A stretch of 64,000 nt of DNA from Parcubacteria group bacterium GW2011_GWA2_43_13 (GCA_000999025.1 LCFM01000001.1:1198-65197); one strand, 5' to 3'; shown: positions 7,126 to 61,000, counted from the first letter of the stretch. Notes: generated from the sequence alone by a model not told the origin. Translations and numbers: made by a program.

Positions 7126-7189
7126 AGTGTGTGGGATGTGTCATTGTATCAAACCCACTACCGAGCAACAATGTGAATAAACTGTGCAC

Positions 7190-7228
7190 AAAAAAACCCG
7201 TACTCACCGGGGTGAGCACGGGTTTTGA
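7190..7228 (-). terminator. Rho-independent terminator after the response-regulator gene
   Basis: Minus strand reads AAACCCGUGCUCACCCCGGUGAGUACGGGUUUUUUU: GC stem followed by a U-run. Confidence 0.7.
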
Positions 7229-10844: not shown

Positions 10845-10883
10845 GAGACGCCCCTCCGCCAGACGGCGGAGGAGCGTCTCTAC
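10845..10883. repeat. Family A palindromic repeat (GAGACG...CGTCTC), variant copy
   Basis: GAGACGCCCCTCCGCCAGACGGCGGAGGAGCGTCTCTAC. Confidence 0.7.
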
Positions 10884-21292: not shown

Positions 21293-21338
21293 ATGTCCGT
21301 GTAAAGACGCATTGTTAATGCGTCTTTACTATTTATCA

Positions 21339-21722
21339 TCACGTCTTTCGTTGCGAACGATACAATAAAAGAAGTTCTATCATAGCGAACAAAAGGATAA
21401 AGAGCAAGATATTTGTCCACGGCAATAACCCGTGCGCCTGAAGGTACAAAGCAAAGTTAACAACCAACGCGTACCATATGGCATGGCGAAATGAAACTAC
21501 CACATCATGCTCATCCAGTGCGCCACGCGTACGGATTGCGTGGTACCCTAATCCGATCAGCGCAAATGTGCCTACTAATGCACATACCGATGTCGCATAA
21601 AATAATACAACACCAGTCATGCCAGATGTAAACGGATCTACAAACATCAAAACCCCACTCCATGCAATCCACATCAAGAGTGTTCCGATAAGTAAAGCAA
21701 CAGTATAGCGTTTGATAGACAT
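21339..21722 (-). CDS. Membrane protein of unknown function
   Basis: 127 aa, four predicted TM helices. Confidence 0.45.
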   Translation of the reverse strand: MSIKRYTVALLIGTLLMWIAWSGVLMFVDPFTSGMTGVVLFYATSVCALVGTFALIGLGYHAIRTRGALDEHDVVVSFRHAIWYALVVNFALYLQAHGLLPWTNILLFILLFAMIELLLLYRSQRKT

Positions 21723-21736
21723 ACATGACGATTATT

Positions 21737-21764
21737 GTAGAGACGGGGTTAACCCCGTCTCTAC
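21737..21764. repeat. Family A palindromic repeat, canonical copy
   Basis: GTAGAGACGGGGTTAACCCCGTCTCTAC, a perfect 12-4-12 palindrome. Confidence 0.85.
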
Positions 21765-21773
21765 AATAGTGTG

Positions 21774-24700: not shown

Positions 24701-27700
24701 CATCGCTGTTATCGGCATCGGCAAAATCATACGCAATATTCACAGCGCCGTCACTGCCTTGAGTTGCGGTAATATTACTGATAACCGGCGCGGCATTCAC
24801 AGTATAGGTTACTGTTACATCACTGACAGTTGGTGTTGCGAATCCTGCGCTTGCTAAAAAAAGTTTATATTGAAAATACTGATCATTCGCTCCGATATTC
24901 AAAAGATGTCCTGCCGCCAATGAAGAATTGTTATTGGCTGTTTCAAAATAGTTACTCCCACTGCACGATCCGGCGGAATCCGCATATCCGCACCAATTGC
25001 TCCACGTATTACCATCTGATGAAGAACGAATTTGGAATTTTATGGTCTCGGTTCCGGATGTTCCTGTGGCCGTCCATGCAATTTTATTCATCACATTGCC
25101 TGATGACTGGGTGTTAAATGTATTAGAAGTGAGCGTGCCAGGTTGATAATTGTTATACGCAATCGTAATATCGCTTAAGGTAGAGGTATAGCCAGTATCT
25201 GCGGTTGCAAGAAATAATTTATACCTGATATACCGCTTGCCGTTTAATGCTGAATGAATAGCTGTTCCTGATGAGCTAAAATACGTTCCACTTGTTCCAT
25301 CGCTACCGACATAGTCGCCAGAGACCCAACCGCTGTCTGCGTCTTTTCCGGCGACTTGCACGCTGAACGCATTATCTCCTGTTTGCGAAGGAACGGTAGA
25401 TGTCCATGTGAGATTGCCAAAACTCGCAGGCAGTGTTGCCAAATCAATGGTCGCGGATTCAAAGTTGCCTGATGTGGTATATGCATTAGTAGATACCAAA
25501 TACCTAAACAGCGCATATGTATTATTAGCTGTAGTATAATATACTCCTATATGCGTACTTTCTGTAACAAAAACCATACCAGTCGTCGTATAATTTGACG
25601 AATCTCCACTTACAGACGTACCTCCTAATGCAGTCCACGCGTTATCAGCAATAGAATATTTTAAAAATTCGTATGACGAAACTCCAGGCGTAAGATAAAA
25701 TAGACCGTTAGTAGAATCATATGCAAACCCAGCACCCCCTTGTATTGTACCTGCGCTTGAGGGAGCCGATTTTGCGCTCCATACTCCTGTCCCAGCATTA
25801 TAGGTGTACAATGTTGGGCTTGATCCTCCAAACAACACATAAAAAACTCCGTCTGTAACATAATATCGAGCAAAATTCCCATAATTATTATTTGCGTTTT
25901 GAGGCGCGGCTGTCAGTGTTTCCCAAGAATTGCCAGATATACTGTAACGATAAAAAGTAGTTGCACCACCACCTGCAAGTACATAAATATAATTATCTCC
26001 CGGAACACGAAAAACAACAGATCCAGTGGTGATTGTGCCCGGCGCGTCAGTCAACGGAGCGATGGTATTGGTGGAGATAGTATATTTTTTAAATGTTGCT
26101 GTTGCTCCACCATAAACAATATAAATAGTATCTGATGTGCCGTCACGAGATAGTGAATATCCATTACTCACAGAGCCACCGATTGACGCGCTTGCTGTGC
26201 ATGTATTTGAGGTGATGGAATATTTATAAACAGTATTATTACCGTTTCCTAAAAAAAATATTTCATCATCAATGCTGTTGCGGATCATACCAACACCTCT
26301 AGCGCTATTATTTCCCATGCAAGTTGAAAGGGATGACCAAGTATCTGTACTTATTGTATATTTGACAAGGTTATTATTCCCTCCCCCCCTGTGTATAAAA
26401 ATCTTCCCATCTCCGTCAGCATATATCATCTGCGCACCAGATGCAAAATAATAAATGGGAGAAACAGACAGAGATGAACTATCAGAACTCTGCCAAGAAT
26501 TTCCCGAAATAGAATATCGAGCAAAATGAGGCTGAGATAATTGATACCCATAAATATAATCACCCAAAATCACAGGGTGCTTTGCATTGAAAGCGACAGT
26601 GCCTGGAACAGAGCTTGACCATGTTCCACCTGCAATTGAATATATTCTAATGATTGCTGAAAAAACAGCATAAAGATTCGTTCCTGCGTCATTTATGAAC
26701 AGATTTCCGTTGCCATTTACCGTCGCTGGCAATGAAGTAAGAGCGCTCCAATTATCATCTCCGGTTGCATATTTATAAAAACTACTAGATCCTCCTCCGA
26801 CTACAACATAAATATCAGTTCCCACCATCCGCATTGATCCTCCATCCCCTACAGATGCCGGCACAATGGCTAATGTACTCCAACTATTGCCTGAAATAGA
26901 ATACTTATAAAATCCGGTTGAGCTATTACCACTCATAACATAAATGCCATTTGAACCATCCCAAAGCATCCGTGCTCCGGTACTAACACCCGAAGGAACA
27001 GATGTAAGAGCACTACTCCAAGTCCCTGCACTTATCGAATATCTATAAAACAGTACACCCCCGCCTGCAGGCAAAAAATAAATATAACCATCTGCAAGTA
27101 ACAATCCTCCACCCGAATCACTTGAAGTGGTTGCTGTGGAATTTAATGTTACCCATTGATTCGTGCTGATAGAGTATTTATAAAAACCAGTACCCGCAGC
27201 ACCTCTTGTAACATATAGATCAGTCCCATTCAACACCATCCGAGGGTTCCCTATTGTTTCTGGAGCAGATGCCAATGTAGTCCACTGATTTGTGCTAATT
27301 GTATATTTATAAAAATTGGTTGTCGTTACTCCTGCTAATACATATAAGTCGTCTGTACCATAGGGAAGCATTGGTGCATTTATTGATCCAACAGGAAGTC
27401 TAGCGAAAGATGTGCTCCACGCGTTTACAGCAGATGTTCCGCCTTGCAAAGTAACGGTCCCGCTCGCTCCGGAACCGTTCACTTGGGTGGATGTGTTTGC
27501 GCCATTTCCAAATCCGCCACCTGTGGCGCTACTAGTGGTTGTTAATGTGCCGTCGTCAGTTGCGGTAAAAGATGATGTTGCAAGCGTGATATCGGCACCT
27601 GCGGTAACATTACTATCTTTGTCTAAATATTCTGTCCATCCGTTTTGGTTAGAGGCGTGCGTTGCCGGATTTTCCGTTTCAGTATTCCATGCGGTTTGAA

Positions 27701-27830
27701 GAAAGGTATAGTTTGCGCTTCTGCCAAAATCCCAAAATGATGCAAGTAATATCACAACCACAAACATCACCATAGCGCCACACCCAATACCTATTAAAAA
27801 TGTTTTTTTATTTTTAAAAAACTGAATCAT
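21774..27830 (-). CDS. Giant (about 2000 aa) cell-surface protein with Kelch-type beta-propeller repeats and fibronectin-III-like domains
   Basis: N-terminal TM/signal (MIQFFKNKKTFLIGIGCGAMVMFVVVILL). More than 15 repeats of ..FYKYSIS.N.W..L.. . Several FN3-like units (TYYYQVRSKDASAN; TKYHYQLRS). Confidence 0.75.
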   Translation of the reverse strand: MIQFFKNKKTFLIGIGCGAMVMFVVVILLASFWDFGRSANYTFLQTAWNTETENPATHASNQNGWTEYLDKDSNVTAGADITLATSSFTATDDGTLTTTSSATGGGFGNGANTSTQVNGSGASGTVTLQGGTSAVNAWSTSFARLPVGSINAPMLPYGTDDLYVLAGVTTTNFYKYTISTNQWTTLASAPETIGNPRMVLNGTDLYVTRGAAGTGFYKYSISTNQWVTLNSTATTSSDSGGGLLLADGYIYFLPAGGGVLFYRYSISAGTWSSALTSVPSGVSTGARMLWDGSNGIYVMSGNSSTGFYKYSISGNSWSTLAIVPASVGDGGSMRMVGTDIYVVVGGGSSSFYKYATGDDNWSALTSLPATVNGNGNLFINDAGTNLYAVFSAIIRIYSIAGGTWSSSVPGTVAFNAKHPVILGDYIYGYQLSQPHFARYSISGNSWQSSDSSSLSVSPIYYFASGAQMIYADGDGKIFIHRGGGNNNLVKYTISTDTWSSLSTCMGNNSARGVGMIRNSIDDEIFFLGNGNNTVYKYSITSNTCTASASIGGSVSNGYSLSRDGTSDTIYIVYGGATATFKKYTISTNTIAPLTDAPGTITTGSVVFRVPGDNYIYVLAGGGATTFYRYSISGNSWETLTAAPQNANNNYGNFARYYVTDGVFYVLFGGSSPTLYTYNAGTGVWSAKSAPSSAGTIQGGAGFAYDSTNGLFYLTPGVSSYEFLKYSIADNAWTALGGTSVSGDSSNYTTTGMVFVTESTHIGVYYTTANNTYALFRYLVSTNAYTTSGNFESATIDLATLPASFGNLTWTSTVPSQTGDNAFSVQVAGKDADSGWVSGDYVGSDGTSGTYFSSSGTAIHSALNGKRYIRYKLFLATADTGYTSTLSDITIAYNNYQPGTLTSNTFNTQSSGNVMNKIAWTATGTSGTETIKFQIRSSSDGNTWSNWCGYADSAGSCSGSNYFETANNNSSLAAGHLLNIGANDQYFQYKLFLASAGFATPTVSDVTVTYTVNAAPVISNITATQGSDGAVNIAYDFADADNSDADITVYYQPAGVTLNEELSNSDTTAIIVSSIANLPDAATILIDNEMMTYTSKTGSNLQGTITRGVNSSAAAAHTPGTALFVKAVTTSGTGVGVNIATGTGKTIAWTANTDIDGLYGSMVVKVLADDGEAGNRFGSANASSFTLDTKDPISVSLVVNANKETANTADVTIAGSDDNSITMRAASTSSPTGEYETYATSKTDYALSADPATLYLHIKDAKGNITTVSSITPTTPTNLAIIETSNTKLSTPVYRLFVSWQVVADPAPGFGSYKVYRKVGSGSYALASTIAGDNEVNYYTDTSVSDSTAYTYYVVTVDSAGNVSQRSSTVAGTANGRVDTGETAGSDDQTAPTISAIGTPSVSGTTVTLTFQTNETSDSWIDYSTNLTYGLSQGVPTMVSAGQTHTVVLTGLNAFTTYYYQVRSKDASANSATENSSNSLTFRTAATTGASSGMITVEPDRLAPSILIFDITETSSTTAVINVRTDESSRAILSYGTTSASLSQTKESDSLNTTHTLSLSGLKSATKYFVKAEVADSAGNKRSSEVKNFTTGALKATDPIPPKEEVIQEPLTADKIKEIKNEIQDKPKEEQKEILTKTLSLSVEVPQNAGTREDAVKKVTRNFEQLVRQLASGSLRNDPGVLQELIATASQDIPGPQIVEGLPIIELTPTSATFYWKTDKSSNSLVGLVPDALYSSTAKEPYLVEVGNSREYVSEHTVKISDLRSATKYHYQLRSQGAVGAVAKSRDYEFITPSDTLEIVVANVTDITASRITLQWRTNVDADGQVEYTPYNGTGALDTARRGTQGKTDFSLDHNIELTNLAPGTRYALRIISRDRSEKAVERVLGDATTLIDREGPQISQVDAQSTLYPGVEAKVQTLMTWRTDEPSNSQVVFWAGLGATQGEEMKTQESKEYTRNHVVVLTRQAPGAVYQYKVVSIDESGNKSESDTYTMLAATNTENVIDVIVKNFSDIFGWLKKK

Positions 27831-27894
27831 AGGACCATCTTCAAAACAAACAAAAAAGTTATGCACAATTTATAATAGTATATCACATTTCATT

Positions 27895-27922
27895 GTAGAG
27901 ACGTATAGCAATACGTCTCTAC
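27895..27922. repeat. Family A repeat, variant loop
   Basis: GTAGAGACGTATAGCAATACGTCTCTAC. Confidence 0.75.
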
Positions 27923-30900
27923 GCATCGCTGAAATCACACATTTTTTTAAACGGACACCACTGGCAATGATAGCCAGGGGTTGCAGAAAACGCACTCTCC
28001 TCCATATGCTGAATCTGCTGTTTGATATTGAGCTGTAATTGCTCAAGGTCATCAGTGCCTCCTAAAAATGAGACCATTGAATCATCTTCAAGATAATGAT
28101 ATGTCAATCGCAACGGCACATACCCCAACACCTGTTGAACCGCAATCTGATACAATAACAATTGATGCTTGTCTTCTATGCTCATCTTGTCTCCTTTCGG
28201 CGTACCGGTTTTGTAATCAATGATTTCAACCCCTTCGTGCCCATCTATCACAATCGGATCAATGCGGTCAATACGACCCCACAGCGCGTATCGTTTCCCA
28301 TTATTCATCACTGGAAATTCAAACATTTTTTCAAGCGCAATTGGAACCGGCCATCCGCCTTTATATCGCTCTATCAGTGATGCAATAATCTCTTTCCCTT
28401 TTTTATCATACTCGTCTCGTTGTGTTTTTGATGTATACCAATCATCAATCCAACACTGATCATAGAATTTTAATAATTCCTTTTCTTCTAACACAATAGT
28501 GCTACCGGTTTCAGAAATGCTGTTGCCAAAAAGATCTGTCTGACCAATACGGGATGCGCGATCCTGAACCAAAAAAAACGCTTTTTGTAGCAATGAATGC
28601 ATAGTGGTGCCAAAAGAAAACATTGGCGTGCCTTCAACTACTGGAACTTTTAAAATATGTTCGTATTTATATTTCAGCGGGCAGGTTGCGAATGATTGTA
28701 ATTTTGTGTGGCTTAATGCATAAATATTTCGATATTTTGATATGTCGATATTTCGGGTGTCGGATTGCGGATTGTGGGGATCAATACCGCCCTCGGAGCG
28801 TAGAGACGGGGTTAACCCCGTCTCTACGGATGGGAGGGAGAGAATGTTTGCCACAATGTTTGCCTCAACAACAAACCGCGAGATTTTCTTTTTTCTTACT
28901 CCGCCGTAATCATCCGCGCTGGTAAAGTAAAGCGCATTTTTTGCCCGTGTCATGGCGACATAGCAAAGCCGCCGCTCTTCCTGCAGGTGTTCGTCTCCTG
29001 TTGGCAGTGTTTCGTGAATCAAGTCATCAGGGAGCGGGATACTATCCCCACGATTTGAAGTTGGAAACTTTTGTTCCACCATATTCACCACGCAGACAGT
29101 ATCAAACTCAAGCCCTTTCGCAGAATGCACAGTTAAAATATTGACCGCGTCTTCATCTCGTAATTCCAATTGTTCAAACCTGCCGTCATTGCCTGACCCG
29201 CGCTCAAGTTCAATTTCATCTGTAAAATGCTTAATGTGTGTATCGTCATGCGATTGCTCAAATTCGGCAACACGCTGATAAAACTGGCCCACGCACCATA
29301 AATCATCAATCGCTCTTTGCTGTTCTTGGGATGCGGGACTATTTGCTCTATCGCTTAATACCTTCATATACCCACTCTCTTGCATAAAATCATCAATAAT
29401 CTGGCCAGCAGAGTACTCGCGCGCAAGCGCAGTATGGCGGGAAATCAAATGAGTAAGTTTTTGAATACGCTCCCGCGCTTCGTCTGAAAGCGACGGAATA
29501 AGTTGCGCGTCTTTTAACGCCTCATAAAACGACACTGCTTTTCTTTTCATGTACTGTTGAATACAGGAAATATCCTCATACCGAATGGCATATACAGGAG
29601 TTGTCAGTAAACGGTAACACGACTGGGCATCATGGTAGTTATCCAAAAGATTAATATACGCAAAAATATCTAAAATAACCGGCGTACGATACAACCCCCG
29701 TTGCGCCCAAAATTGATATGGTATCTGTTCTGATCCGCACGCACGGCAGAATGGGTCAGCAGAATCATTTGCTCGCACAAGAAGCGCCATATCTTTCCAC
29801 GCAACGCCGGTATCATGCCTCTGTTTGAGAAGCGCCATAACAGATCCAATTTCATCATCAAGCTTTGCGCAATGAATATGTTTGATAATCCCTATTTCAT
29901 GCGACTGGGAAATGAGTTTTTTTGAAATTGGCATGTGCCGATTATCTACTCCCGTAGAGACGGGGTTAACCCCGTCTCTACGTGGCATAAGCGTCTCTAC
30001 ACTCTCATCCTCTTTATCCCGCCTTCCCGAACTCTTCAACTGCGCCTCTAATCGATCAGGATTATTATACTGAATAAGAGTGTATGCAGAATCCAATATA
30101 TTCTGCTTTGACCTATAATTTTGCGTAAGAACAATCTCCTCGCTTTCTGGAAAATCTTTTTTAAAACTTAAAATATTGCTCACTGACGCGCCGCGAAATT
30201 TATAAATTGCCTGATCATCATCTCCCACAACCATGATATTTTTTTCACGGCCTGCAGAGACGCCCCCCTGGGGCGTCTCATCTCGCGCGCCATTAGAGAC
30301 GCGCCCCTGGCGCGTCTCTACCCCTACAAGAAGTTTAGTGAGTTCATATTGTGCCCAGTTCGTATCCTGAAATTCATCAACTAATATGTAGTGGAACTTC
30401 TGTTGATAATACGCCCTCACGCGCGGACGCTGTTGCAACAACTGCACGGCATAGACAATAAGATCGCCAAAATCCATCACATTCTCTGTGAGCAATAATT
30501 GCTGATATGAGTGATAGATATGTGCTATTTCTTGAACGCGATCTGACTTGCTCTCATCTCCGGCTTCGGCACGATCTTTGTTTAATCTTATACTATCAGC
30601 ATATTCCAAATACCGTTCAGGTGTAATCAGCTCATCTTTTGCGCGGCTGAAATGTTTTAACAAATCACGCAAAAATTTTGTCGGATTGCCTTTGGGCTTA
30701 TAATATGAAAGTGGCAGATCATCAAGATGATTGCGTAACAACAGCCACTGATCTGTTTCATTTAACAACTTTGCGTCAGCTGGTAAACCGATCTCAATAC
30801 CAAACCTGCGTATAATTTTTTCGCAAAATGAATGAAAAGTTGAAATTTCTAAATCATAATATCCCTGCGTCAAAAGCCCGGCAACGCGATCTTCCATTTC

Positions 30901-31095
30901 GGCAGACGCTTTGTCAGTAAAGGTAAGCGCGAGAATGCGATCGCTTGAAATTTTTTTTTCTTCAATCAGCCATGCGATACGACGGGTAATAACTGTTGTT
31001 TTTCCGGTTCCTGCGCCAGCGATAATCAGCACAGGGCCATCTTGCGCAGTGACTGCCTGAAGTTGCTCATTGTTTAATCCTTCTAAATGATTCAT
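27919..31095 (-). CDS. UvrD/PcrA-family helicase fused to a C-terminal RecB-type PD-(D/E)xK nuclease (AddA-like)
   Basis: N-terminal AGAGTGKT Walker A; DExQD (ILVDEFQDTN); motif III VVGDDDQAIYKFRGA. C-terminal nuclease IDYKTG plus a Cys cluster (CQWCPFKKMC). Three in-frame family A inserts. Confidence 0.85.
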   Translation of the reverse strand: MNHLEGLNNEQLQAVTAQDGPVLIIAGAGTGKTTVITRRIAWLIEEKKISSDRILALTFTDKASAEMEDRVAGLLTQGYYDLEISTFHSFCEKIIRRFGIEIGLPADAKLLNETDQWLLLRNHLDDLPLSYYKPKGNPTKFLRDLLKHFSRAKDELITPERYLEYADSIRLNKDRAEAGDESKSDRVQEIAHIYHSYQQLLLTENVMDFGDLIVYAVQLLQQRPRVRAYYQQKFHYILVDEFQDTNWAQYELTKLLVGVETRQGRVSNGARDETPQGGVSAGREKNIMVVGDDDQAIYKFRGASVSNILSFKKDFPESEEIVLTQNYRSKQNILDSAYTLIQYNNPDRLEAQLKSSGRRDKEDESVETLMPRRDGVNPVSTGVDNRHMPISKKLISQSHEIGIIKHIHCAKLDDEIGSVMALLKQRHDTGVAWKDMALLVRANDSADPFCRACGSEQIPYQFWAQRGLYRTPVILDIFAYINLLDNYHDAQSCYRLLTTPVYAIRYEDISCIQQYMKRKAVSFYEALKDAQLIPSLSDEARERIQKLTHLISRHTALAREYSAGQIIDDFMQESGYMKVLSDRANSPASQEQQRAIDDLWCVGQFYQRVAEFEQSHDDTHIKHFTDEIELERGSGNDGRFEQLELRDEDAVNILTVHSAKGLEFDTVCVVNMVEQKFPTSNRGDSIPLPDDLIHETLPTGDEHLQEERRLCYVAMTRAKNALYFTSADDYGGVRKKKISRFVVEANIVANILSLPSVETGLTPSLRSEGGIDPHNPQSDTRNIDISKYRNIYALSHTKLQSFATCPLKYKYEHILKVPVVEGTPMFSFGTTMHSLLQKAFFLVQDRASRIGQTDLFGNSISETGSTIVLEEKELLKFYDQCWIDDWYTSKTQRDEYDKKGKEIIASLIERYKGGWPVPIALEKMFEFPVMNNGKRYALWGRIDRIDPIVIDGHEGVEIIDYKTGTPKGDKMSIEDKHQLLLYQIAVQQVLGYVPLRLTYHYLEDDSMVSFLGGTDDLEQLQLNIKQQIQHMEESAFSATPGYHCQWCPFKKMCDFSDA
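28800..28827. repeat. Family A repeat inside the helicase gene (encodes SVETGLTPSL)
   Basis: GTAGAGACGGGGTTAACCCCGTCTCTAC. Confidence 0.85.
29954..30000. repeat. Family A repeat plus partial copy inside the helicase gene (encodes RRDGVNPVSTGVDNRH)
   Basis: Full 28-mer followed by GCGTCTCTAC. Confidence 0.85.
30254..30322. repeat. Two variant family A units inside the helicase gene, between motifs II and III
   Basis: GCAGAGACGCCCCCCTGGGGCGTCTC and TTAGAGACGCGCCCCTGGCGCGTCTCTAC. Confidence 0.75.
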
Positions 31096-31156
31096 ATGTA
31101 AACATCATGTAAAGTGTATACGACCCTCTCATCTCAATGAATACCTTGGAAGTAAA

Positions 31157-31270
31157 CCTCTCCCTCCCCCCTCCTTGGTAAGGAGGAGGAATAACGCACG
31201 GCCTCTCTCCTTTACAAAGGAAAAAGATAACGACGACCTCTCTCCTTGACAAGGAGTGGGTAGGTGAGGT
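31157..31270. repeat. Cluster of about 3 family B hairpin units
   Basis: CCCTCCTTGGTAAGGAGGAGG .. CTCTCCTTTACAAAGGAAAAAG .. CTCTCCTTGACAAGGAGTGGG. Confidence 0.7.
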
Positions 31271-31316
31271 AAAAAGTTGACTCTTTTTGCTAAAAGATTT
31301 ATATATACAGTAATAT

Positions 31317-31886
31317 ATGATCCAACAATGGATAGCAACTTTTTTACTTGCCATGACGCCGATTGGAGAACTCCGAGCCGCTATTCCGGTAGCGCTTGCG
31401 GTGTATAAACTCAGCCCATGGCCTGTGCTGTTCGTCGCCATCGCAGGGAATATCATTCCTGTTTTTTTTATCTATCAGGCATTGGTGTGGATTGAACACA
31501 CAATACAATCATCATTAGAGAAAACACTCTCGCTGTTGCATCACGGCAATCGGGAAGAATTTATAAAAATAGTACTTGAAGATCCACAAAAAATAAAACC
31601 CCATCTGTCAAACACTCTCTTGTTGTGGGGATTCGCTTTGTATACTTTTTTACTCCGCAGGACTGCAAAAAAGTATGTCAACGCTCATAAACAACTTACC
31701 TTTTTTTCTCTTGCCGCGTTTGTCGCAATACCATTGCCAATGACCGGCGCCTGGACCGGCACGATACTGGCCTATCTCTTGGGAATCCCGCTCGGCAGAG
31801 CATTCCCATCCATATTGCTCGGCATTGGAATAGCAGGACTTATCACCACAGTGCTCTCATTAGGAGGCATCGCGCTTTCAAGTTAG
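31317..31886 (+). CDS. Small multidrug-export-like membrane protein (COG2426-like)
   Basis: N-terminal ..MTPIGELRAAIPVALAV.. motif, 4-5 TM helices; plus strand. Confidence 0.55.
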   Translation: MIQQWIATFLLAMTPIGELRAAIPVALAVYKLSPWPVLFVAIAGNIIPVFFIYQALVWIEHTIQSSLEKTLSLLHHGNREEFIKIVLEDPQKIKPHLSNTLLLWGFALYTFLLRRTAKKYVNAHKQLTFFSLAAFVAIPLPMTGAWTGTILAYLLGIPLGRAFPSILLGIGIAGLITTVLSLGGIALSS

Positions 31887-34278: not shown

Positions 34279-34292
34279 ATAGAAAGAATCCT

Positions 34293-34314
34293 GTAGAGAC
34301 GGGGTCGTCTCTAC
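34293..34314. repeat. Family A repeat, truncated-loop copy
   Basis: GTAGAGACGGGGTCGTCTCTAC. Confidence 0.7.
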
Positions 34315-35093
34315 AATCCAAAAAATTCAATCGCATTCTGTGTCGTCTGTTCAAGCACCTCATCATACTCCTTGCCATGAATCTCGGCAACTTTAAGGGC
34401 AACCTCCTCAACATACAGCGGTTCATTCTGTTTTCCGCGATAACGAGCAGGGGCAAGATACGGAGAATCCGTCTCTACCATAAGCCGATCAAGAGATACT
34501 GCTTTTACTGTTGCCTCCAGCTCTTTGGCAAATGTAATCACACCGGTAAACGAAATCATGCATCCAGTAGATAAAATCTGTTGTGCTTGTTTAGCAGTAC
34601 CAGTAAAACAGTGGAATACGGCGCGTACAGCCATCCCCCCTCTCAATACCCCCAAAACATCCTCAATCGCTGTTGGTAATGTTTCTGCAGTGCCACGTGA
34701 ATGAATAATCAACGGTTTATCCAATGCGCGCGCAACGTGCACATGCCCTGTTAAAAATTCTTTTTGCAATTCATGCGACGCAATCTCTTCTGGCCGGTAA
34801 AGATCAATACCTGTTTCCCCTATCCCCACCACCTTATTGTCCTGTGCCAAGGAGGTCAACCAATCGCCATCAAACGGCTCATCACCCACATGACTTGGAT
34901 GCTGTCCCACTGCCACGTATACTGGATCATTGGTATACTCATGCGCAATCATCACTGCTCGCTCGCTGGTATCTTTCGCCGCTCCGATAATAATCAAGCC
35001 CATGTCTTTGGCAAGGGCTCGCTCAATCGTTTCGCGATAGGTATCTCGAAACACCTTAAAATTAAGATGACAGTGCGTGTCAATTATCCTCAT
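34311..35093 (-). CDS. tatD: TatD-family metal-dependent DNase/hydrolase
   Basis: MRIIDTHCHLNF.. start and the motif pattern (HSRG; ETDSPYLAP). Confidence 0.85.
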   Translation of the reverse strand: MRIIDTHCHLNFKVFRDTYRETIERALAKDMGLIIIGAAKDTSERAVMIAHEYTNDPVYVAVGQHPSHVGDEPFDGDWLTSLAQDNKVVGIGETGIDLYRPEEIASHELQKEFLTGHVHVARALDKPLIIHSRGTAETLPTAIEDVLGVLRGGMAVRAVFHCFTGTAKQAQQILSTGCMISFTGVITFAKELEATVKAVSLDRLMVETDSPYLAPARYRGKQNEPLYVEEVALKVAEIHGKEYDEVLEQTTQNAIEFFGL

Positions 35094-37155: not shown

Positions 37156-37222
37156 GAAGACGCCCCATCGGGGCGTCTCTACAATATAGTGCAGTGGAGA
37201 CGGGGCGTTGCCCCGTCTCCAC
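37156..37222. repeat. Two family A variant units; the second supplies the rsmI C-terminus
   Basis: GAAGACGCCCCATCGGGGCGTCTCTAC and GTGGAGACGGGGCGTTGCCCCGTCTCCAC. Confidence 0.75.
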
Positions 37223-37886
37223 TATATGAAAACAGGGCAAGAATGACGACAAACTCACCTTTTTCTACAATATTTGGCACAATTTCTTCAATCGTGCCGC
37301 GATACACGGTTTCAAACATTTTTGTCAACTCCCTGCATACAATAACATGACGATCACCAATCAACGGCTTAAGTTCGTTCAACGTTTTTTTGATTCTATG
37401 GCAGGATTCATAAAAGACGGCTGGATAAGATGATTCGGCAATGTTAGCAAGAAAGGTTTTGCGCCCTTTTTTATGAGGGATAAAACCCCAAAATACAAAT
37501 CGATCTGTACCAATACCGGCAACTGAAAGAGCGGCAGAAAGAGCGCTTGGTCCGGGAACGGAAACAACCTCAATCCCAGCCATAATTGCATGATGAACAA
37601 AGATATTCCCAGGATCAGAAATACCTGGTGTCCCGGCGTCAGTAACCAATGCCGCATGCTCACCATTTTTCAAACGCTCTATAATCATTTCAATCTTTTG
37701 AGATGAACTGTGATGATGACAACTTACACACTCTTTTTTTATATCATACATTCCCAAAAGTTTATGCGTAACCCGCGTATCCTCGCATAATATAAAATCA
37801 ACCTCGCGCAATATTCGCAAGGCCCTCAATGTAATATCTTCTCTGTTTCCAATGGGAGTGGCTACACTATACAGCATACTATGCAT
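37179..37886 (-). CDS. rsmI: 16S rRNA (cytidine1402-2'-O)-methyltransferase
   Basis: MHSMLYSVATPIGNREDITLRALRILREVDFILCEDTR is the RsmI hallmark. The last ~13 codons (SGDGATPRLHCTIL) are read from a family A repeat. Confidence 0.8.
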   Translation of the reverse strand: MHSMLYSVATPIGNREDITLRALRILREVDFILCEDTRVTHKLLGMYDIKKECVSCHHHSSSQKIEMIIERLKNGEHAALVTDAGTPGISDPGNIFVHHAIMAGIEVVSVPGPSALSAALSVAGIGTDRFVFWGFIPHKKGRKTFLANIAESSYPAVFYESCHRIKKTLNELKPLIGDRHVIVCRELTKMFETVYRGTIEEIVPNIVEKGEFVVILALFSYSGDGATPRLHCTIL

Positions 37887-39020: not shown

Positions 39021-39048
39021 GTAGAAACGGGGTTAACCCCGTCTCTAC
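39021..39048. repeat. Family A repeat
   Basis: GTAGAAACGGGGTTAACCCCGTCTCTAC. Confidence 0.85.
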
Positions 39049-40332: not shown

Positions 40333-40360
40333 GTAGAGACGGGGTTAACCCCGTCTCTAC
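40333..40360. repeat. Family A repeat
   Basis: GTAGAGACGGGGTTAACCCCGTCTCTAC. Confidence 0.85.
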
Positions 40361-42113: not shown

Positions 42114-43211
42114 TCACTTAAAAAGCGAAAGATATGTCTCTATATTATTCAACGTTGCAAGGCGTAAAGCAAGTGGTTCTTGGGATATAAAAAGATGACG
42201 CAGATACGCTTTTGTATATGTCCGCAGTTCTTCTAATTGCGAATCAGAATGTATTGGAGAAAAATCGTTTTTATATTGTTCATTGGTAATGGAGGTGGGG
42301 GCGACAGAGGGAAGATACAACCTTCCATGCCGGGCCTCGCGAGTTGGGATCACGCAATCAAACATATCAATCCCCTTTTTATATGCTTCGATCACTTGTT
42401 CCGGCTTTCCCACACCCATTAAATACCGCGGTTTATCTTCCGGCAAAATCGGAATCACCCAATCAAGAACTTTACGCGCTTCTTCCCACGGCTCGCCAAC
42501 CGATACCCCGCCAATCGCATACCCGTCAAACGGCATATCAACCAATGTTCGCGCGCATTGTTCACGCAAATCCTGATACATCCCACCCTGAACAATGGCA
42601 AACAGTAAATAATCGCCTTTATTTTTTTGTTTATACTTTAACGAACGCTCGGCCCATCGCAGAGTGCGTTCCATATCCTGCCCTGCTTTTTCATGTGTAC
42701 ATGGATATTCAGAACATACATCCAACACCATGCGGATATCAGAACCGATTGTGTCTTGAATTTCCAAAACTCGCTCCGGAGTAAAAAAATGCTTTGCTCC
42801 TGAAATATGATCGCGAAATTCCACACCGTTGTTAGTTATACGAACAAGAGATTTCTCTATCTGGAGAGACGGAGTTAACCCCGTCTCTCCATGACTGCTA
42901 TGACGCTTTATCCTGCCTAACGAAAATACCTGATAGCCACCGCTATCAGTTAAAATCGGCTTATCCCATTTCATAAAGCCATGCAACCCGCCTGCCTCTT
43001 TTAAACACTCTTCCCCGGGGCGCAAGTACATATGATAGGTATTGGAAAGAATAATGGTTGCTCCTAATTGCTCAAGGTCGCGCGTTGTCAGTGACTTTAC
43101 CGCCCCTTTTGTTGCAATAGGCATGAAGAAGGGGGTTCGCAATTCTCCATGTGGTGTTATGATTGCCAACTTTCTTATCATATCTATCAATGCATCGAAA
43201 TAAAAAAGCAA
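42114..43211 (-). CDS. tgt: Queuine tRNA-ribosyltransferase
   Basis: TPHGELRTPFFMP, LTDSGGYQVFSL and a Cys/His zinc site are all TGT-like. Carries an in-frame family A insert (..HGETGLTPSLQ..). Confidence 0.85.
   Translation of the reverse strand: MLFYFDALIDMIRKLAIITPHGELRTPFFMPIATKGAVKSLTTRDLEQLGATIILSNTYHMYLRPGEECLKEAGGLHGFMKWDKPILTDSGGYQVFSLGRIKRHSSHGETGLTPSLQIEKSLVRITNNGVEFRDHISGAKHFFTPERVLEIQDTIGSDIRMVLDVCSEYPCTHEKAGQDMERTLRWAERSLKYKQKNKGDYLLFAIVQGGMYQDLREQCARTLVDMPFDGYAIGGVSVGEPWEEARKVLDWVIPILPEDKPRYLMGVGKPEQVIEAYKKGIDMFDCVIPTREARHGRLYLPSVAPTSITNEQYKNDFSPIHSDSQLEELRTYTKAYLRHLFISQEPLALRLATLNNIETYLSLFK
42863..42890. repeat. Family A repeat inside tgt
   Basis: GGAGAGACGGAGTTAACCCCGTCTCTCC. 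Confidence 0.8.
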
Positions 43212-49749: not shown

Positions 49750-49860
49750 GTAAGACCTCCCCTCTCCTTGGTAAGGAGGGGAGACGCGTCGGTTCCCTCT
49801 CTTTTAAGAAGGAGAGGGTTAGGGTGAGGTATCCCCTCCTTTTTAAGGAGGGGGGAGAAG
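49750..49860. repeat. Cluster of about 3 family B hairpin units upstream of smpB
   Basis: CTCTCCTTGGTAAGGAGGGGAG .. CTCTCTTTTAAGAAGGAGAGGG .. CCCCTCCTTTTTAAGGAGGGGGG. Confidence 0.7.
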
Positions 49861-50339: not shown

Positions 50340-50372
50340 AAAAAACACCCCATAATGGGGTGTTTTTTATCA
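50340..50372. terminator. Bidirectional rho-independent terminator (smpB and rplT converge here)
   Basis: AAAAAACACCCCATAATGGGGTGTTTTTTA. Confidence 0.75.
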
Positions 50373-52690: not shown

Positions 52691-53323
52691 TTATTCCAAA
52701 CTAAACTCAACTAACTCTTTTTTTATCTTTTTCTCACTCACCTCAACCCCGGGCATAAAAACCACCTTTTCATCATATTTGACATCATCAAAATACGCTA
52801 ATTGTATTCTAAACAATTTACTGTTAAATTGTGTGCCAAATATGGATTCAGCTTGTTGTACAATCTCCTGCAACGAATGATAACCTTTCATAATAAAACG
52901 CAAATCAACATAATCCTTCCACTTTGCCCGCCGACCTAAAGCGTATGCTTTCATCGCGGCCAACGTGACTAAATTTGGCATTTTGATTATACCCTCAAAA
53001 TCTTCCGTGTATGCTATATCAAATGGATAATGATAAAACGTAACTTTTACATCCCCCACTAAAAAGGTTAATTCTCCTGATTTATCAACAATAACGTGGC
53101 TTATTTTTACAACTCGTTCAATTTTTTTCTTAAGAGCGGATGTCCTAAACTCCTTGTTTGAAAATAAATCAAAATCAATTGATTCTCTATGACCAATGTG
53201 TAAAGCGATAGCAGTACCTCCAACCAACCCATATTCTTTCCTCATGTACTTTAACAACGGCAATAATGCTACCTGTTCGTCTGTGAGTATTTCCTTATGC
53301 ATATTTATTAAAATACAAGGCAA
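52691..53323 (-). CDS. AbiEii/AbiGii-family nucleotidyltransferase (DUF1814-like), module 2
   Basis: GLVGGTAIALHIGHRESIDFDLF corresponds to the GGTAL...R.S.D(I/L)D(F/L) hallmark of AbiEii NTase toxins. Confidence 0.65.
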   Translation of the reverse strand: MPCILINMHKEILTDEQVALLPLLKYMRKEYGLVGGTAIALHIGHRESIDFDLFSNKEFRTSALKKKIERVVKISHVIVDKSGELTFLVGDVKVTFYHYPFDIAYTEDFEGIIKMPNLVTLAAMKAYALGRRAKWKDYVDLRFIMKGYHSLQEIVQQAESIFGTQFNSKLFRIQLAYFDDVKYDEKVVFMPGVEVSEKKIKKELVEFSLE

Positions 53324-53570
53324 AGTAATGCTTTACTTCCGCCCGATAATTTTGCCGACCCATTTTTGAGGGTTTGGATTTTTCACGAAAAATTTTAGCA
53401 ACTTTTTTGATGCCTAAAATCTTAATTAATGTCTGCACGTCATCCCAATCCCCATAATTCAGAGTTGCCTCCACAATGGACTCTGCCTTTAGTTTATCGT
53501 AATCCTTTACCCACCAAATAAGATGTTTTCTTTCTTTAATAAAATCATGAATGGTCATAGTCAAATACAT
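53295..53570 (-). CDS. Small partner protein of NTase module 2 (candidate antitoxin)
   Basis: 91 aa; overlaps both flanking genes; weak similarity to the 54176..54406 product (W..., .DWDD/.YWDT..L..IL motifs). Confidence 0.4.
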   Translation of the reverse strand: MYLTMTIHDFIKERKHLIWWVKDYDKLKAESIVEATLNYGDWDDVQTLIKILGIKKVAKIFREKSKPSKMGRQNYRAEVKHYFALYFNKYA

Positions 53571-57948: not shown

Positions 57949-58016
57949 ACATCTTTTACTATACTACACAAATACTCCCTATGACAATAGTCGCAAGCAT
58001 TACACAAAAGACGCTC

Positions 58017-58043
58017 CACCGGAGCGTCTCTACAATATCATCA
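58017..58043. repeat. Family A variant just downstream of the giant gene
   Basis: AAAGACGCTCCACCGGAGCGTCTCTAC. Confidence 0.65.
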
Positions 58044-58045
58044 TG

Positions 58046-61000
58046 TTACGCGGCTTTGGAAAGATGTTTTGCAAGTTCTTGTTCAACAGTATCGAACACT
58101 AATTTGCTTTTTGGATCCAGATGCTCCACTATACCGGCAAGAACGCGCCAGCTATGCCATGACTGCTGATTTAATATATTCTTATTAAGCATATCTTGGG
58201 CAGAAAGCCCTAAAATATTTCTCACCCCGATTGCCGCATTTTTCCGCAATTTCGTGTCATCAGACAGTAAATTATTTATTAAACTTTGCGCGTTACCTTT
58301 ATATTTTCCCAACGCATCAACTGAATCGATTGACGTATTCATATACTCAACCAACTCGGACTGTTTCACCGCTCCAACAACCTCTTGAAATGAGGCATCA
58401 TCATGAATAATAGTATGAGCAGAATCAAGCCACTCCGGGGTAATAATTTTTTTAGCATCGTAGGTGAAAAGTTCTGCAATGGCTTTACCGTCATCATCGG
58501 AGACGGGGCGACGCCCCGTCTCTACAACACCAGCAATGGCACTGCTGGTTTCGTGATGCGCATTTGGGATGACATCAACAGTGCCGATGTCTTTATCAGT
58601 TCCTTTGATAGGATGATCTTTGAGCCATTCGGTATAATCGTGCAGTTCGTGACCACGCGCGCCGTTGGGCAGAACGTGACGGATTGAAATAATTTTTTCA
58701 TTGCCCTTGGGGAGTTGCTCTAATACTACATCAGGTGTTTGCGGGTTGCTTGCGCCAAATTTGACGGCAATAATCTCTGGTGGTTGAGACCCCACCCCAC
58801 CCTCCCCTTGTAAAGGGGAGGGAGACGACAATTCACCATGTGAAAAACGGGCGATGTCGTGCGGATCAGTAACAGGTCGCACCCATGCGTGATGATCATG
58901 CATTGTAATATGGTTCCATGGTCCGCCTTCATCTTTAGAAAGATGCTCAAGTGTTTTTGAAATAGTTCCAACATCAGCATCTTGATGAATTGCATGGAAT
59001 GAAGTTAAAATATTTGCTTCTTCTGCGCCGATACTTCCTGATACCGGACCTGGGATATCGCCAGTTGCGCCAATGCTTTCGCGCAGGGCTTCTAATGCTT
59101 CAGACCTCACCCCGCCCTCTCCTTGGAAAGGAGAGGTGGACGATAACTCCCCTTCACCCTCTCTGACCTCAAGAAGGAGGACATGCGCGTCGGTGTTGGG
59201 TAATTGCAATTCATGGGTATGGCCATCAACAATCATGCCTTGCGGAGAAGGGACCGCAAGCGGTTCAAACCTCACCCTCCCCTCTCCTTTTAAAGGGGAG
59301 GGTAACGACGACGACACACCCTCTGTCCTCCTCTCAAGAGGGGGGATCGTCGCCCCCCTTCCTTGAGGAAGGGTTGGGGAAGGTGTTGCGTCATGCGATT
59401 TCGAAAAATCATATTCATGGGAAATATCAGACGGACGCTCAAACACAGCGCCTGCAGTATGGGTTTCAAACGGAGCATACGCGCCACGCGTTGGGTCATA
59501 TGTATATTCACCAACCGCCCATGTTCCTTGCGGTGTTTTATGCAACCAATACGCAGGATTCTCGCCAGCTCCGGCAACGCCGGTATCCAGTACACGCACC
59601 TCATGACCTGCATTATCAACATACCCATAATCGCGCGCAATCAAATGCGCCAGATTGCCACGATCTCCTGTTCCATAACGCTGTGAAAAATATGAAAACG
59701 CATCATGGTTTTGCCCGAGTTGACGATGTAACACATGCTCAACACCCTCCCCCCTGCCAACCACAGCGCTCATTGGAAGATGCCCTGCATCAGGCAAAGG
59801 AACAGGGCCATGAGGCGTGGCTCCACCACCATCTGCCGCATGCGCGACTTCGCGCAAATGAGCAACCTCACCCAACAAAAACGCTCCTATAATCGCTCCG
59901 CCAACTTTATACACTAACCTACGATTTCTATTTCTAATATCTAACACATTATTACCTTGAGCATCATACATTCCGCTTCGCGTCCGTTCTGCTTGCCGAA
60001 ACTCGGTATATTCAGCGTGAAGTGATCCGCCTGTCTGTTGAATAGTTTCAAATTTTTGAGGAATGCTTTTTTCACCTGTTCTCAATCCATCCGGCCTCAC
60101 GCGCGGAGGTTGGGCATTCGTGCTCCACAATGGTCGCTCCCATTCTACCAAAAGTTTTAAATGCATTACTTTAGTATACATTTTTTTAAACCGTTCATAT
60201 TGATGGCTAAATTCATGATGATTTTTTAAATTTTCAATATATGGCTGGGTTTCTGCAAGTACTTTCAGCATTGGCTGCAATTGGGCATCAATATTCGCAA
60301 CGTCGGAAATGGTTAATTCGTTCTCTATTTTTTGCAATGTCTTTTCGTATTCCCCCAACTTACCCGATTCAAGCGCTTTGAGCGATTGCTCAACACCTGT
60401 CTCTGGCGCATTCCTGCCTGTGCGCAATGCAAACCCCCACCTGCCATGAGGCCCGCCCCATGGCCGACCAATACCACCTGAATCAGCTAATGCTCCTCCC
60501 ATTTTCCATCCGCTGTACGCGCCTACTGCCGCCGCCCCCGCTACCCCAAAAGTGCGCAAAAACGATAATCCCAACCCAACGCCTAATGCTGTAGCGCCTG
60601 CAAACGCTTTATCACGTGGCGAAGTGTTATGCCATAAAATTCCGCGGTTGCGATCTTGCTTTGTAAATCCAAGCGGCCGAGTAGTGCGCATGCCATCCGC
60701 AACTGTGCCAAAAAATTCATGATACCCATGTTGCGCGCCCTGACTGCGCTGATCCATTGCCTCTTGATACCGTGTTTTTGCCTCATCATCCATTGAATAA
60801 TACAATGCAAATCGCATGGCGCGGGATTGAATATCTTCTGCAGATAATCGTTGCGCCTCTTCTAATGCGTTATTTTCAGCAGTCAGCGCGCCTAAAAACC
60901 GATTATAATATTCATCAACTCCTAACGGGTCTTGAATCCCCTGCTCTGCTCTGATACGATTGCGGTTTGTGTTTTCAACATAATTGGCAATAGAAAATGA

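Follow-up and report, generated by a model that had tools for sequence, protein, structure and literature searches.

The gene for a UvrD/PcrA-type helicase-nuclease in an ultra-small bacterium of the Candidate Phyla Radiation (CPR), Candidatus Jacksonbacteria, carries short hairpins at three internal sites and another on its stop codon. Most probably these are dispersed, lineage-specific REP-like palindromes kept in permissive loops of a functional helicase, where they would be translated and presumably neutral. The window analysed here is the whole 64-kb stretch of DNA, in which the host gene lies as follows:

27919..31095, minus strand: host helicase-nuclease gene, 1058 aa, SF1A UvrD/PcrA-type helicase with a C-terminal PD-(D/E)XK nuclease

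The first-pass annotation had described a single 1058-aa UvrD/PcrA helicase and nuclease with its motifs present, and both Pfam and the reading frame agree. The ORF runs uninterrupted for 1058 codons with no internal stop or frameshift, and its product matches UvrD-helicase (4.5e-79), UvrD_C (2e-47) and PDDEXK_1 (8.5e-36), as well as PcrA by phmmer (2.8e-83). All of the helicase hallmarks were found (Walker A, motif II DEFQD, motif III GDDDQxIYxFRGA, UvrD_C), together with the D...D/E-x-K motif and four conserved cysteines (Cys ligands) of the C-terminal nuclease; among 119 homologues, Walker A, motifs II and III, the nuclease D/E/K residues and the four cysteines are invariant or nearly so. 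An AlphaFold2 model of the protein resembles PcrA, UvrD, AddA and AdnB (Foldseek, 1pjr at 5e-42, with further matches to AddA and AdnB), and the helicase-nuclease layout is AddA/AdnB-like. In helicase motifs and fold the protein is thus akin to PcrA/UvrD/Rep and AddA/AdnB; unlike them, it has a single-chain CPR-type architecture of ~1000 residues and, in this lineage, extra lineage-specific loops derived from repeats. dN/dS against orthologues, a comparison proposed in the first-pass annotation, is 0.11 for an 81%-identical orthologue and 0.12 for the next. The identical 4177-nt locus is present in six of the eight independent assemblies checked, the identical protein is encoded by all eight, and it was found unchanged on 18 contigs. 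Judged from its sequence, the gene is not decaying: it is intact and under purifying selection, and the enzyme is predicted to be active.

Hairpins of the form GTAGAGACG...CGTCTCTAC were located at each of the positions initially reported for the repeat, called family A (28800, 29954 and 30254-30322). Two are perfect 30-nt palindromes and the third is a dimer; the gene is also bordered by hairpins at both ends, which at the 5' end belong to a different family, B:

28799..28828, unstranded: insert site 1, perfect 30-nt palindrome, in-frame (S)VETGLTPSL(R), residues 756-766, helicase-nuclease linker
29953..29982, unstranded: insert site 2, the insert-1 palindrome in its other open frame, RRDGVNPVST, residues 372-381
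29992..30000, minus strand: solitary half-site GTAGAGACG, V366-E367-T368, 10 nt from the insert-2 palindrome
30256..30327, minus strand: insert site 3, 72 nt = 24 codons, V257-S280, between motif II (DEFQDTN) and motif III (VVGDDDQAIYKFRGA)
30294..30320, unstranded: insert 3, hairpin 1, TAGAGACGCGCC-CCT-GGCGCGTCTCTA
30257..30279, unstranded: insert 3, hairpin 2, GAGACGCCCC-CCT-GGGGCGTCTC
27895..27922, unstranded: stop-codon family-A hairpin GTAGAGACGTATAGCAATACGTCTCTAC, whose arm holds the helicase TAG stop (27919-27921)
31155..31262, unstranded: three family-B hairpins (CCYCTCCTT-N3-AAGGAGRGG), helicase 5' leader / divergent intergenic region

Sites 1 and 2 carry the same palindrome, CGTAGAGACGGGGTTAACCCCGTCTCTACG, which at site 1 folds as an RNA hairpin of -25.6 kcal/mol (z = -7.7). 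The half-site at 29992-30000, which can also be written CGTCTCTAC, adjoins the second palindrome and is probably what is left of another unit or a dimer. Insert 3 is a two-hairpin dimer with GTAG...CTGC flanks, and its peptide is VGVETRQGRVSNGARDETPQGGVS; the peptides specified by the inserts, as predicted by translation, include VETGLTPSLR and DGVNPVSTGVDNR. An insertion between motifs II and III had been proposed from the outset, with a length of about 23 residues. The insertion stands, but codon alignment with orthologues delimits it as 24 codons (30256-30327), and the residues AGREK, at first counted as part of it, are native. The hairpin on the helicase stop codon is degenerate on the orthologous locus L001 and missing on L002.

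The loops that host the inserts are themselves variable. Two of them extend well beyond the palindromes:

28726..28845, minus strand: variable linker hosting insert 1, residues 751-790
29929..30036, minus strand: variable loop hosting insert 2, residues 354-389, following the NNPDRLE helix

The linker varies across all homologues, and at the equivalent position the L001 orthologue has two family-B hairpins. The insert-2 loop can be absent from a homologue or as long as 64 residues (range 0 to 64); on L036 it holds an 81-nt inverted repeat, and on both L001 and L002 it has family-B hairpins. The same helicase loops thus hold other palindrome families in relatives, and some orthologues carry none. 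At site 3, 117 of 118 homologues have nothing in the insert columns, and the alignment with PcrA breaks exactly at query 256/281, corresponding to PcrA residues 239/240, which are contiguous in PcrA. Orthologues without insert 3 have no GTAG at that site. The insert is present in two lineages, dS ~1 apart, and diverges faster than the gene around it (pN 0.21 versus 0.10; dN/dS ~0.33 over 30 codons). In the AlphaFold2 model of the insert-bearing protein (mean pLDDT 84), the fold is confident outside the inserts, and the three longest low-confidence segments, residues 268-282, 361-386 and 755-782, coincide with the three insert sites; their pLDDT lies below 50, which denotes low confidence in a model, not an experimental structure, and is not proof of disorder. 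Only two 3-residue stretches elsewhere fall below 50, and insert 3 scores 41-55. The first-pass annotation had offered either insertion-tolerant surface loops or decay of the gene; the low pLDDT at the inserts and the absence of insert 3 from 117 of 118 homologues favor the former, with the inserts placed by the model in fold-compatible surface loops.

Family A is far more abundant in the window than composition would give. The pattern AGAGACG-N(2-20)-CGTCTCT occurs 8 times against 0 in 100 shuffles, and GTAGAGACG with at most one mismatch occurs 32 times against 5.2 expected. We counted ~17 hairpins in the 64 kb: 4 bear TAG stops, 5 follow a stop by no more than 31 nt, and intragenic units number 7. 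A unit consists of a GTAG tag and a hairpin whose 6-bp outer stem (GAGACG/CGTCTC) is constant and whose inner stem and loop vary; both monomers and dimers are found. RNA fold energies are -18 to -50 kcal/mol (z -5.5 to -9.4), or -18 to -28 per unit. Among 15 distinct copies of the 23-nt-core class, 99.3% of cells are paired, against 38-63% in slid controls; in the inner four pairs, 15 cells are changed on both sides, a level that none of 500 shuffles attained. The inner stems of family A therefore covary. In this class GTA is conserved 5' and the 3' flank is not, and most copies have GTAG at one end only. The 28-nt class, the commonest, instead has a 3' CTAC with which its GTAG pairs. Dimers on L016, L022 and L026, like insert 3, are built as GTAG-hairpin-spacer-hairpin-CTAC with the tags outward. 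The 28-nt palindrome has two open frames (VETGLTPSL and RRDGVNPVST) and a third that reads TAG. The net insertions seen are all divisible by three, the dimer adding 72 nt and the stop-codon copies 18 and 24 nt.

The remaining copies in the window are these:

10845..10883, unstranded: family-A copy 22 nt past the nusG stop, its inner stem longer and only one end bearing GTAG
21301..21329, unstranded: family-A variant (GTAAAGACG...), 10 nt after the stop of ORF 21339..21722
21733..21768, unstranded: 36-nt perfect palindrome including the 28-mer, 6 nt after the stop of a 2030-aa gene
34292..34315, unstranded: short family-A hairpin bearing the TatD TAG stop
37158..37223, unstranded: two family-A hairpins at the TP_methylase 3' end, one forming the TAG stop, the other in-frame 14 nt upstream of the stop
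39021..39048, unstranded: family-A copy bearing the M16 peptidase TAG stop
40333..40360, unstranded: exact 28-mer, intergenic, 31 nt after a class II aminoacyl-tRNA synthetase stop
42862..42891, unstranded: family-A copy in-frame in the tRNA-guanine transglycosylase (TGT) gene, HGETGLTPSLQ
58009..58033, unstranded: family-A copy 13-17 nt after the stop of a 1981-aa gene
58500..58525, unstranded: family-A copy within the 1981-aa gene, in-frame

Hairpin arms thus bear the stops of four genes: helicase, TatD, TP_methylase and M16 peptidase. The L001 site orthologous to the TatD stop reads GTAG|AGG and is without the hairpin. The TGT copy (42862..42891), in a gene confirmed by Pfam, has its tag altered on both sides in a compensating manner (GGAG...CTCC). 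A half-site GTAGAGACG at 34470-34478 is native TatD coding sequence, specifying the motif M-V-E-T-D. The window also includes a tmRNA gene.

The element is not confined to the window, where the identical 28-mer stands at 4 unrelated places. The exact 28-mer was found at 5 loci, on 5 contigs, of a second Jacksonbacteria genome and at 24 metagenome loci. Its in-frame hosts elsewhere, assigned by eye without a Pfam scan, include TopA, CysRS, MurC-like, MiaA and DinB-like genes, and further hosts, assigned in the same way, are FolC-like, UDP-glucose dehydrogenase and subtilisin-like genes. Elsewhere in Jacksonbacteria contigs the reading frame through the 28-mer is always one of the two open ones. 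Empty sites could be compared at the TatD stop (window versus L001) and at the helicase stop (window versus L002); at these and at insert 3 no target-site duplication was seen relative to the empty orthologous sites. Pfam found no RAYT or Y1 HUH transposase among 40 window ORFs, and phmmer with E. coli RayT found no RAYT among 1172 ORFs from ~300 kb of the window and related loci, a part of the genome.

Several other accounts of these inserts have to be weighed. The resemblance to a repeat might be fortuitous and the insert regions ordinary conserved helicase sequence, as the TatD half-site at 34470-34478 truly is native coding sequence. This is hardly conceivable here: alignments with homologues and PcrA contradict it, insert 3 being missing from 117 of 118 homologues and from PcrA, and inserts 1 and 2 exactly copy a dispersed 30-nt palindrome. 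It is very improbable that the gene is a decaying pseudogene overrun by repeats. The repeats are indeed dense, with 4.5 family-A units within the gene, another at its stop and three family-B hairpins upstream, but the 1058-codon ORF is unbroken, dN/dS is 0.11-0.12, the catalytic motifs and all four Cys ligands are intact, the fold is confident outside the inserts, and the protein is identical on 18 contigs. Equally hard to credit is that the palindromes are not mobile and arose in place, by template switching or quasi-palindrome correction at replication, or as assembly artefacts. The palindromes are indeed perfect, intrastrand template switching could produce both-sided changes like GGAG...CTCC in TGT, and de novo hairpins made by template switching are reported from other systems (bioRxiv 10.1101/2023.04.19.537475). 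However, independent origin in place cannot account for an identical 28-mer at 4 window places, 5 contigs of another Jacksonbacteria genome and 24 metagenome loci, and the recovery of the same sequence in 6 of 8 independent assemblies argues against artefact.

An adaptive role is unlikely, though less so than the readings above. The mRNA hairpins might throttle or tune expression by making ribosomes pause, by stabilising the message or, where a hairpin overlaps the stop, by stalling and trans-translation. Alternatively, the added peptides might alter helicase activity and push the cell toward a mutator or hyper-recombination state. With energies of -25 to -50 kcal/mol the hairpins are strong, the stop codon falls within one of them, and a tmRNA gene is at hand within the window; Liang, Rudd and Deutscher reportedly found in 2015 that REPs within ~15 nt of a stop lower translation in E. 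coli via stalling and tmRNA. Moreover, both lineages, dS ~1 apart, retain insert 3, the helicase gene has three of the six intragenic sites in the window, and repair genes are recurrent REP hosts, for which a mutator effect has been suggested (Di Nocera et al., PMC3733652). In contrast, family A also occurs in many unrelated genes (TopA, CysRS, MurC-like and MiaA by eye, TGT by Pfam), and insert 3 evolves faster than the remaining gene (pN 0.21 versus 0.10). The same loops hold different palindrome families according to lineage, and none in some orthologues, which fits permissive sites rather than a conserved function.

On the preferred reading, that of dispersed REP-like palindromes in permissive loops, the elements would have spread through the Jacksonbacteria genome, landing mostly on or just after stop codons and now and then inside coding DNA. 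Because two frames are open, the third reads TAG and the lengths are multiples of three, copies at permissive sites would persist as extra peptide, and copies read in the third frame would persist only at gene ends, acting as the stop codon. The host would offer three long, poorly conserved and possibly disordered surface loops: one separates motifs II and III, another follows the NNPDRLE helix, and the third is the helicase-nuclease linker. Selection would tolerate inserts there, so that the enzyme stays functional. We infer that the inserts are actually translated, and that they are neutral. Movement may have followed a single-strand route like that of REP or IS200-IS605 elements, with insertion directly 3' of GTAG and no target duplication, the rule of insertion 3' of an existing GTAG coming from two intergenic or stop-codon comparisons between sequences ~20% diverged, and the lack of GTAG at the empty insert-3 sites counting against it. 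A bolder version, rather doubtful, is that family A is a Jacksonbacteria "coding-compatible" REP, in which AGACG-loop-CGTCTCTAC (18/24 nt) inserts 3' of any GTAG with no classical RAYT and recolonises CPR loops; such insertion without duplication would be intrinsically frame-preserving. If so, family A and a second, SD/anti-SD-like family would repeatedly enter the same disordered loops of essential enzymes, giving a steady supply of new surface peptide in ultra-small genomes and possibly a regulatory effect on repair-helicase dosage.

Known repeats offer close parallels. In MITEs, terminal inverted repeats enclose an unrelated core, and insertion duplicates the target site. Family A resembles bacterial MITEs (Correia, ERIC, Nezha) as a short non-autonomous repeat of inverted symmetry that can make in-frame fusions, but it was not assigned to them: the unit is a single whole hairpin, with no duplication at the three empty-site comparisons. 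The nearest relatives are the GTAG-tagged REPs, catalogued with the REP/RAYT "REPtron" systems by Di Nocera, De Gregorio and Rocco in 2013 (PMC3733652). These REPs provide TAG stops, have intragenic copies in UvrD/Rep, RecB, UvrA and DinB/DnaE2-type genes, add ~10-30 residues, sometimes twice per gene, and occur in some strains without REPtrons (PMC3733652). Family A shares with them the stem-loop of 20-40 nt tagged with GTAG, subfamilies whose stems differ by compensating changes, the occurrence of monomers beside dimers with outward tags, a position mostly just downstream of ORFs with the tag often the TAG stop, and intragenic copies in a UvrD-type gene. It differs in its host, CPR/Patescibacteria, which lies outside the eight phyla of PMC3733652, in a stem with both GTAG and CGTC motifs, in its large intragenic share (7 of ~17 in the window) and in that no RAYT gene was found in the part of the genome searched. 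Moreover, its commonest unit is a perfect 28-30-nt palindrome with GTAG paired with CTAC, whereas the classical REP tag is unpaired.

The Rickettsia palindromic elements (RPE; Ogata et al. 2000, 2002) make in-frame fusions, according to PMC10969869 and PMC3733652. Family A is like them a selfish palindrome lying in-frame in unrelated housekeeping genes with the host ORF preserved. In the same accounts, RPEs are translated, are judged fold-compatible through their surface-loop position and belong to a host-dependent bacterium of reduced genome; classical RPE-1 is there given as ~100-150 bp, or 30-50 residues, against 24-30 nt (8-10 residues) for family A and 72 nt for its dimer. Sequence family and phylum also differ, Candidatus Jacksonbacteria not being Rickettsia. 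In-gene REPs and coding palindromes are thus a published phenomenon, and what is new here is the bacterial group.

Intragenic REPs and "protein-coding palindromes", previously described in Proteobacteria, Verrucomicrobia and Rickettsia, are now extended to the CPR, whose genomes of ~1 Mb are usually called streamlined; selfish hairpins nonetheless fill stop codons and the loops of housekeeping enzymes. Such inserts yield spurious opposite-strand ORFs, inflate apparent protein divergence and may pass for pseudogenisation or lineage-specific domains. They also flag engineerable loops of a CPR helicase-nuclease. The association of REPs with UvrD/RecB-type genes, unexplained in 2013, recurs in a distant phylum and is somewhat more worth testing for it. 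The density of hits in one gene, remarked on at first pass, is borne out: the helicase gene makes up 5.7% of the coding DNA of the window, yet holds three of its six intragenic family-A sites (binomial P ~0.003, post hoc), a clustering that could, in line with a speculation of Di Nocera et al., reflect something particular to repair helicases.

The helicase gene (27919..31095, minus strand) is a single ORF of 1058 aa without interruption, and its product has Pfam matches to UvrD-helicase (4.5e-79), UvrD_C (2e-47) and PDDEXK_1 (8.5e-36); Candidatus Jacksonbacteria RIFCSPLOWO2_02_FULL (CPR/Patescibacteria) has an identical annotated protein. The first-pass annotation placed hairpins at three sites in this gene, and those positions agree with the palindromes that we found. 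These belong to family A (GTAG-tagged hairpins, outer stem GAGACG/CGTCTC); other features, including hairpins of family B (CCYCTCCTT-N3-AAGGAGRGG), were absent from the earlier list.

Hairpins in and around the helicase gene
28799-28828 and 29953-29982: two copies, in the gene, of the perfect 30-nt palindrome CGTAGAGACGGGGTTAACCCCGTCTCTACG
30257-30279 and 30294-30320: tandem family-A variants with the common outer arm GAGACG/CGTCTC and different inner stems
29992-30000: family-A half-site, absent from the earlier list
27895-27922: family-A member whose arm includes the helicase TAG stop, absent from the earlier list
31155-31262: three family-B hairpins (CCYCTCCTT-N3-AAGGAGRGG) in the helicase 5' leader, absent from the earlier list

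The pattern AGAGACG-N(2-20)-CGTCTCT has eight matches in the window, and 100 shuffles produced none. As encoded, peptides that would span the helicase inserts include SVETGLTPSLR, RDGVNPVSTGVDNR and QGRVSNGAR. The same 1058-aa protein is carried by 18 contigs, and in six of the eight independent assemblies checked the 4177-nt locus matches the window exactly, so the hairpins are not assembly artefacts. Spurious ORFs lie at 28623-28925 (plus strand, 100 aa) and 31067-31456 (minus strand, 129 aa), crossing hairpins on the opposite strand or within the leader, with peptides that include VETGLTPSLRMGG and PPPYQGGGRERF; hairpin repeats of this type can give rise to false gene calls.

Across 119 homologues there is little or no variation in Walker A, DEFQD, GDDDQ-IY-FRGA, the nuclease D/E/K residues and four cysteines, which bears out the earlier description of an intact gene with all motifs present. 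The dN/dS comparison and structure prediction proposed in the first-pass annotation gave, respectively, values of 0.11 and 0.12 against the orthologous loci L001 and L002 (dS about 1) and an AlphaFold2 model (119 sequences; mean pLDDT 84.3) that matches PcrA, UvrD, AddA and AdnB. Judged by dN/dS, motif conservation, the identical assemblies and the confident model, the gene is alive; the alternative that it is decaying is at odds with the low dN/dS and the intact ORF. The three longest segments of the model with pLDDT below 50 (residues 268-282, 361-386 and 755-782) are the three insert sites. Together with the variable loops in homologues, these support the proposal that the inserts occupy surface loops tolerant of insertion, as far as a predicted structure can speak to it. 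P0095, a 1441-aa Patescibacteria orthologue, has Hint/intein Pfam domains (PF01079, PF14890), and thus the same gene hosts an intein in another lineage too.

Aligned by codon with its three nearest orthologous loci (L001, L002 and L003; 81%, 74% and 60% identity by BLASTP, and 83% and 80% for the first two in a second alignment), the gene shows insert 3 as a clean addition of 72 nt, or 24 codons, at 30256-30327 (V257-S280), between CTT and GCA. A related version of 54 nt lies at the same junctions in L001, and L002 and L003 have no insert. Conserved helicase sequence is not what occupies this site: of 118 homologues, 117 have only gaps in its columns, and the phmmer alignment to PcrA breaks the query at residues 256/281 where PcrA 239 and 240 are contiguous. 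The loop after NNPDRLE (site 2) has a median length of 7 residues among homologues and reaches 64, and for the helicase-nuclease linker (site 1) the median is 28; at both places L001 and L002 have family-B hairpins instead of family A. On these sequence comparisons, the helicase palindromes are insertions. In P0066, a distant CPR orthologue encoded on L036, an imperfect inverted repeat of 81 nt (7141-7221), encoding SVIPAAEPESRVKRAGQVSGLRVGARNDK, occupies the loop equivalent to site 2. L036 6568-6630 is listed as well, peptides of this repeat-like kind are seen again in the two variable loops of several further helicase orthologues, and small GIY-YIG ORFs lie on both sides of the P0066 gene.

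Family A has about 17 members in the window. Four hold a gene's TAG stop (helicase, TatD, a TP_methylase-family gene and an M16 peptidase), five are at most 31 nt past a stop, and seven units fall inside genes: the helicase accounts for four, and the tRNA-guanine transglycosylase (TGT) gene, the C-terminus of the TP_methylase-family gene and a 1981-aa gene for one each. In TGT, the protein loop that holds the copy is too variable among aligned proteins to place insert junctions. Predicted RNA folding gives -18 to -28 kcal/mol per unit and -50 kcal/mol for the dimer, whose layout is GTAG-hairpin-spacer-hairpin-CTAC. When 15 distinct 23-nt-core copies are aligned, most of them with GTAG at one side only, the six outer pairs are invariant and variation is confined to the four inner pairs, where it is compensated: 99.3% of cells are paired, with 15 cells changed on both sides, a level reached in 0 of 500 shuffles; slid controls are 38-63% paired. 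A half-site, GTAGAGACG at 34470-34478, was rejected as a family-A element because it is native coding for the conserved TatD M-V-E-T-D motif (ATAGAAACC in an orthologue), a chance match; single half-sites are therefore not to be counted as elements.

Among species-representative genomes, the exact 28-mer occurs in only one other, another Jacksonbacteria MAG (5 contigs); it also occurs at 24 metagenome loci. There it lies in-frame in ORFs resembling, by eye and without a Pfam scan, topoisomerase I, CysRS, a MurC-like ligase, MiaA, a DinB-like polymerase, a FolC-like ligase, UDP-glucose dehydrogenase and a subtilisin-like protease. Every in-frame copy is read as VETGLTPSL or RRDGVNPVST; the remaining frame gives TAG, and copies at gene ends are in that frame. 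Were a palindrome open in two frames inserted randomly or at targets, selection would leave this frame pattern.

Two empty sites bear on the mode of entry. At the TatD stop, the window's TTGTAG-AGACGACCCCGTCTCTAC-AGG corresponds to TTGTAG/AGG in L001; at the helicase stop, the window's GCGTAG-(AGACG...CTCTAC)-AATGAAATG corresponds to ACGTAG/TTGTGAAATG in L002. Both comparisons probably reflect insertion of 18 or 24 nt without target duplication, whereby family A would enter directly 3' of an existing GTAG. REP (repetitive extragenic palindrome) and IS200/IS605-type single-strand elements behave in this way. Cleavage at GTAG by RAYT, the REP-associated Y1 transposase, is described in the REP literature (PMC3733652). 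Insert 3 also shows no target duplication, and because GTAG is missing at this position in the orthologues that lack the insert, the GTAG rule is not secure. Blastn with joined flanks against the window and related loci returned only self or same-strain filled sites, plus L001. In a four-point tree of the helicase, L001 groups with L002 (916/1000), which would imply that insert 3 was lost on L002 or gained twice. Divergence along the gene is mosaic, L001 and L002 being closest mid-gene and the window and L001 near the linker, which suggests recombination between Jacksonbacteria lineages. Since such a mosaic makes recombination adequate for the insert 3 pattern, we make no claim of precise excision.

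According to Di Nocera et al. 2013 (PMC3733652), GTAG-tagged REPs have compensating stem variants and dimers, favour ORF 3' ends where their tags provide TAG stops, and when fully intragenic encode about 10-30 residues; recurrent hosts are UvrD/Rep, RecBCD, UvrA and error-prone polymerase genes, and a single gene may hold two inserts. Rickettsia palindromic elements are the classic in-frame coding palindromes (PMC10969869). Family A fits the GTAG REP kind in stem compensation, dimers, 3' ends, TAG stops and intragenic copies. It differs in its host phylum (CPR), in its commonest unit, a perfect 28-30-nt palindrome with GTAG paired with CTAC, and in its high intragenic fraction. Moreover, neither the window nor related loci totalling about 300 kb yielded a RAYT: E. 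coli RayT as a phmmer query matched no ORF, whether from the window or from 33 related loci, and Pfam gave no Y1_Tnp among 40 window ORFs, each covering part of the genome. We found no description of such elements in CPR, Patescibacteria or Parcubacteria in the literature searched. Family A in the helicase gene thus fits an already known REP/coding-palindrome kind, here in CPR.

Three of the window's six intragenic family-A sites fall in the helicase gene, 5.7% of coding DNA (binomial P ~0.003, post hoc). The simplest reading is that the helicase has three unusually long permissive loops, which is supported because different palindromes occupy these loops in other lineages; the specific connection of REPs with repair helicases speculated on in 2013 (PMC3733652) may also play a part.

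A restriction-modification reading was dropped. GAGACG/CGTCTC, a BsmBI-type site, is about as frequent outside hairpins as expected, and hence not avoided. Rfam gave no family at gathering score for the hairpins.

Family B occurs in the window at 31155-31262, 49833-49853, 54775-54797, 57420-57438 and 58800-59373, and in relatives at L001 667-730 and 4054-5259 and L002 537-591. Its arms resemble Shine-Dalgarno/anti-Shine-Dalgarno sequences. In the window it is intergenic at the helicase leader and in-frame within the 1981-aa gene, which holds one family-A and four family-B hairpins in-frame; on L001 it is in-frame in TatD (48-codon insert) and in helicase loops.

Other features of the window
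21774-27866 and 58046-63991, minus strand: two giant genes, 2030 aa (precomputed Pfam: faint or weak fn3, PhoD_N, Pur_ac_phosph_N) and 1981 aa
52202-52595, minus strand: tmRNA gene (Rfam RF00023, 66 bits; missed by ARAGORN)
52691-53323 and 53545-54258, minus strand: two adjacent AbiEii-type nucleotidyltransferase toxin genes (type IV toxin-antitoxin/abortive infection family)
4473-5930, minus strand: ThyX (Thy1) gene with two Thy1 stretches; at 485 aa, roughly double the usual length
50340-50368: canonical bidirectional intrinsic terminator after rplT, AAAAAACACCCC-ATAAT-GGGGTGTTTTTT

Family-A hairpins were rejected as intrinsic terminators, having no T-tracts and not being called by a simple terminator scan. 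The terminator after rplT means that the genome also uses ordinary terminators, distinct from family A.
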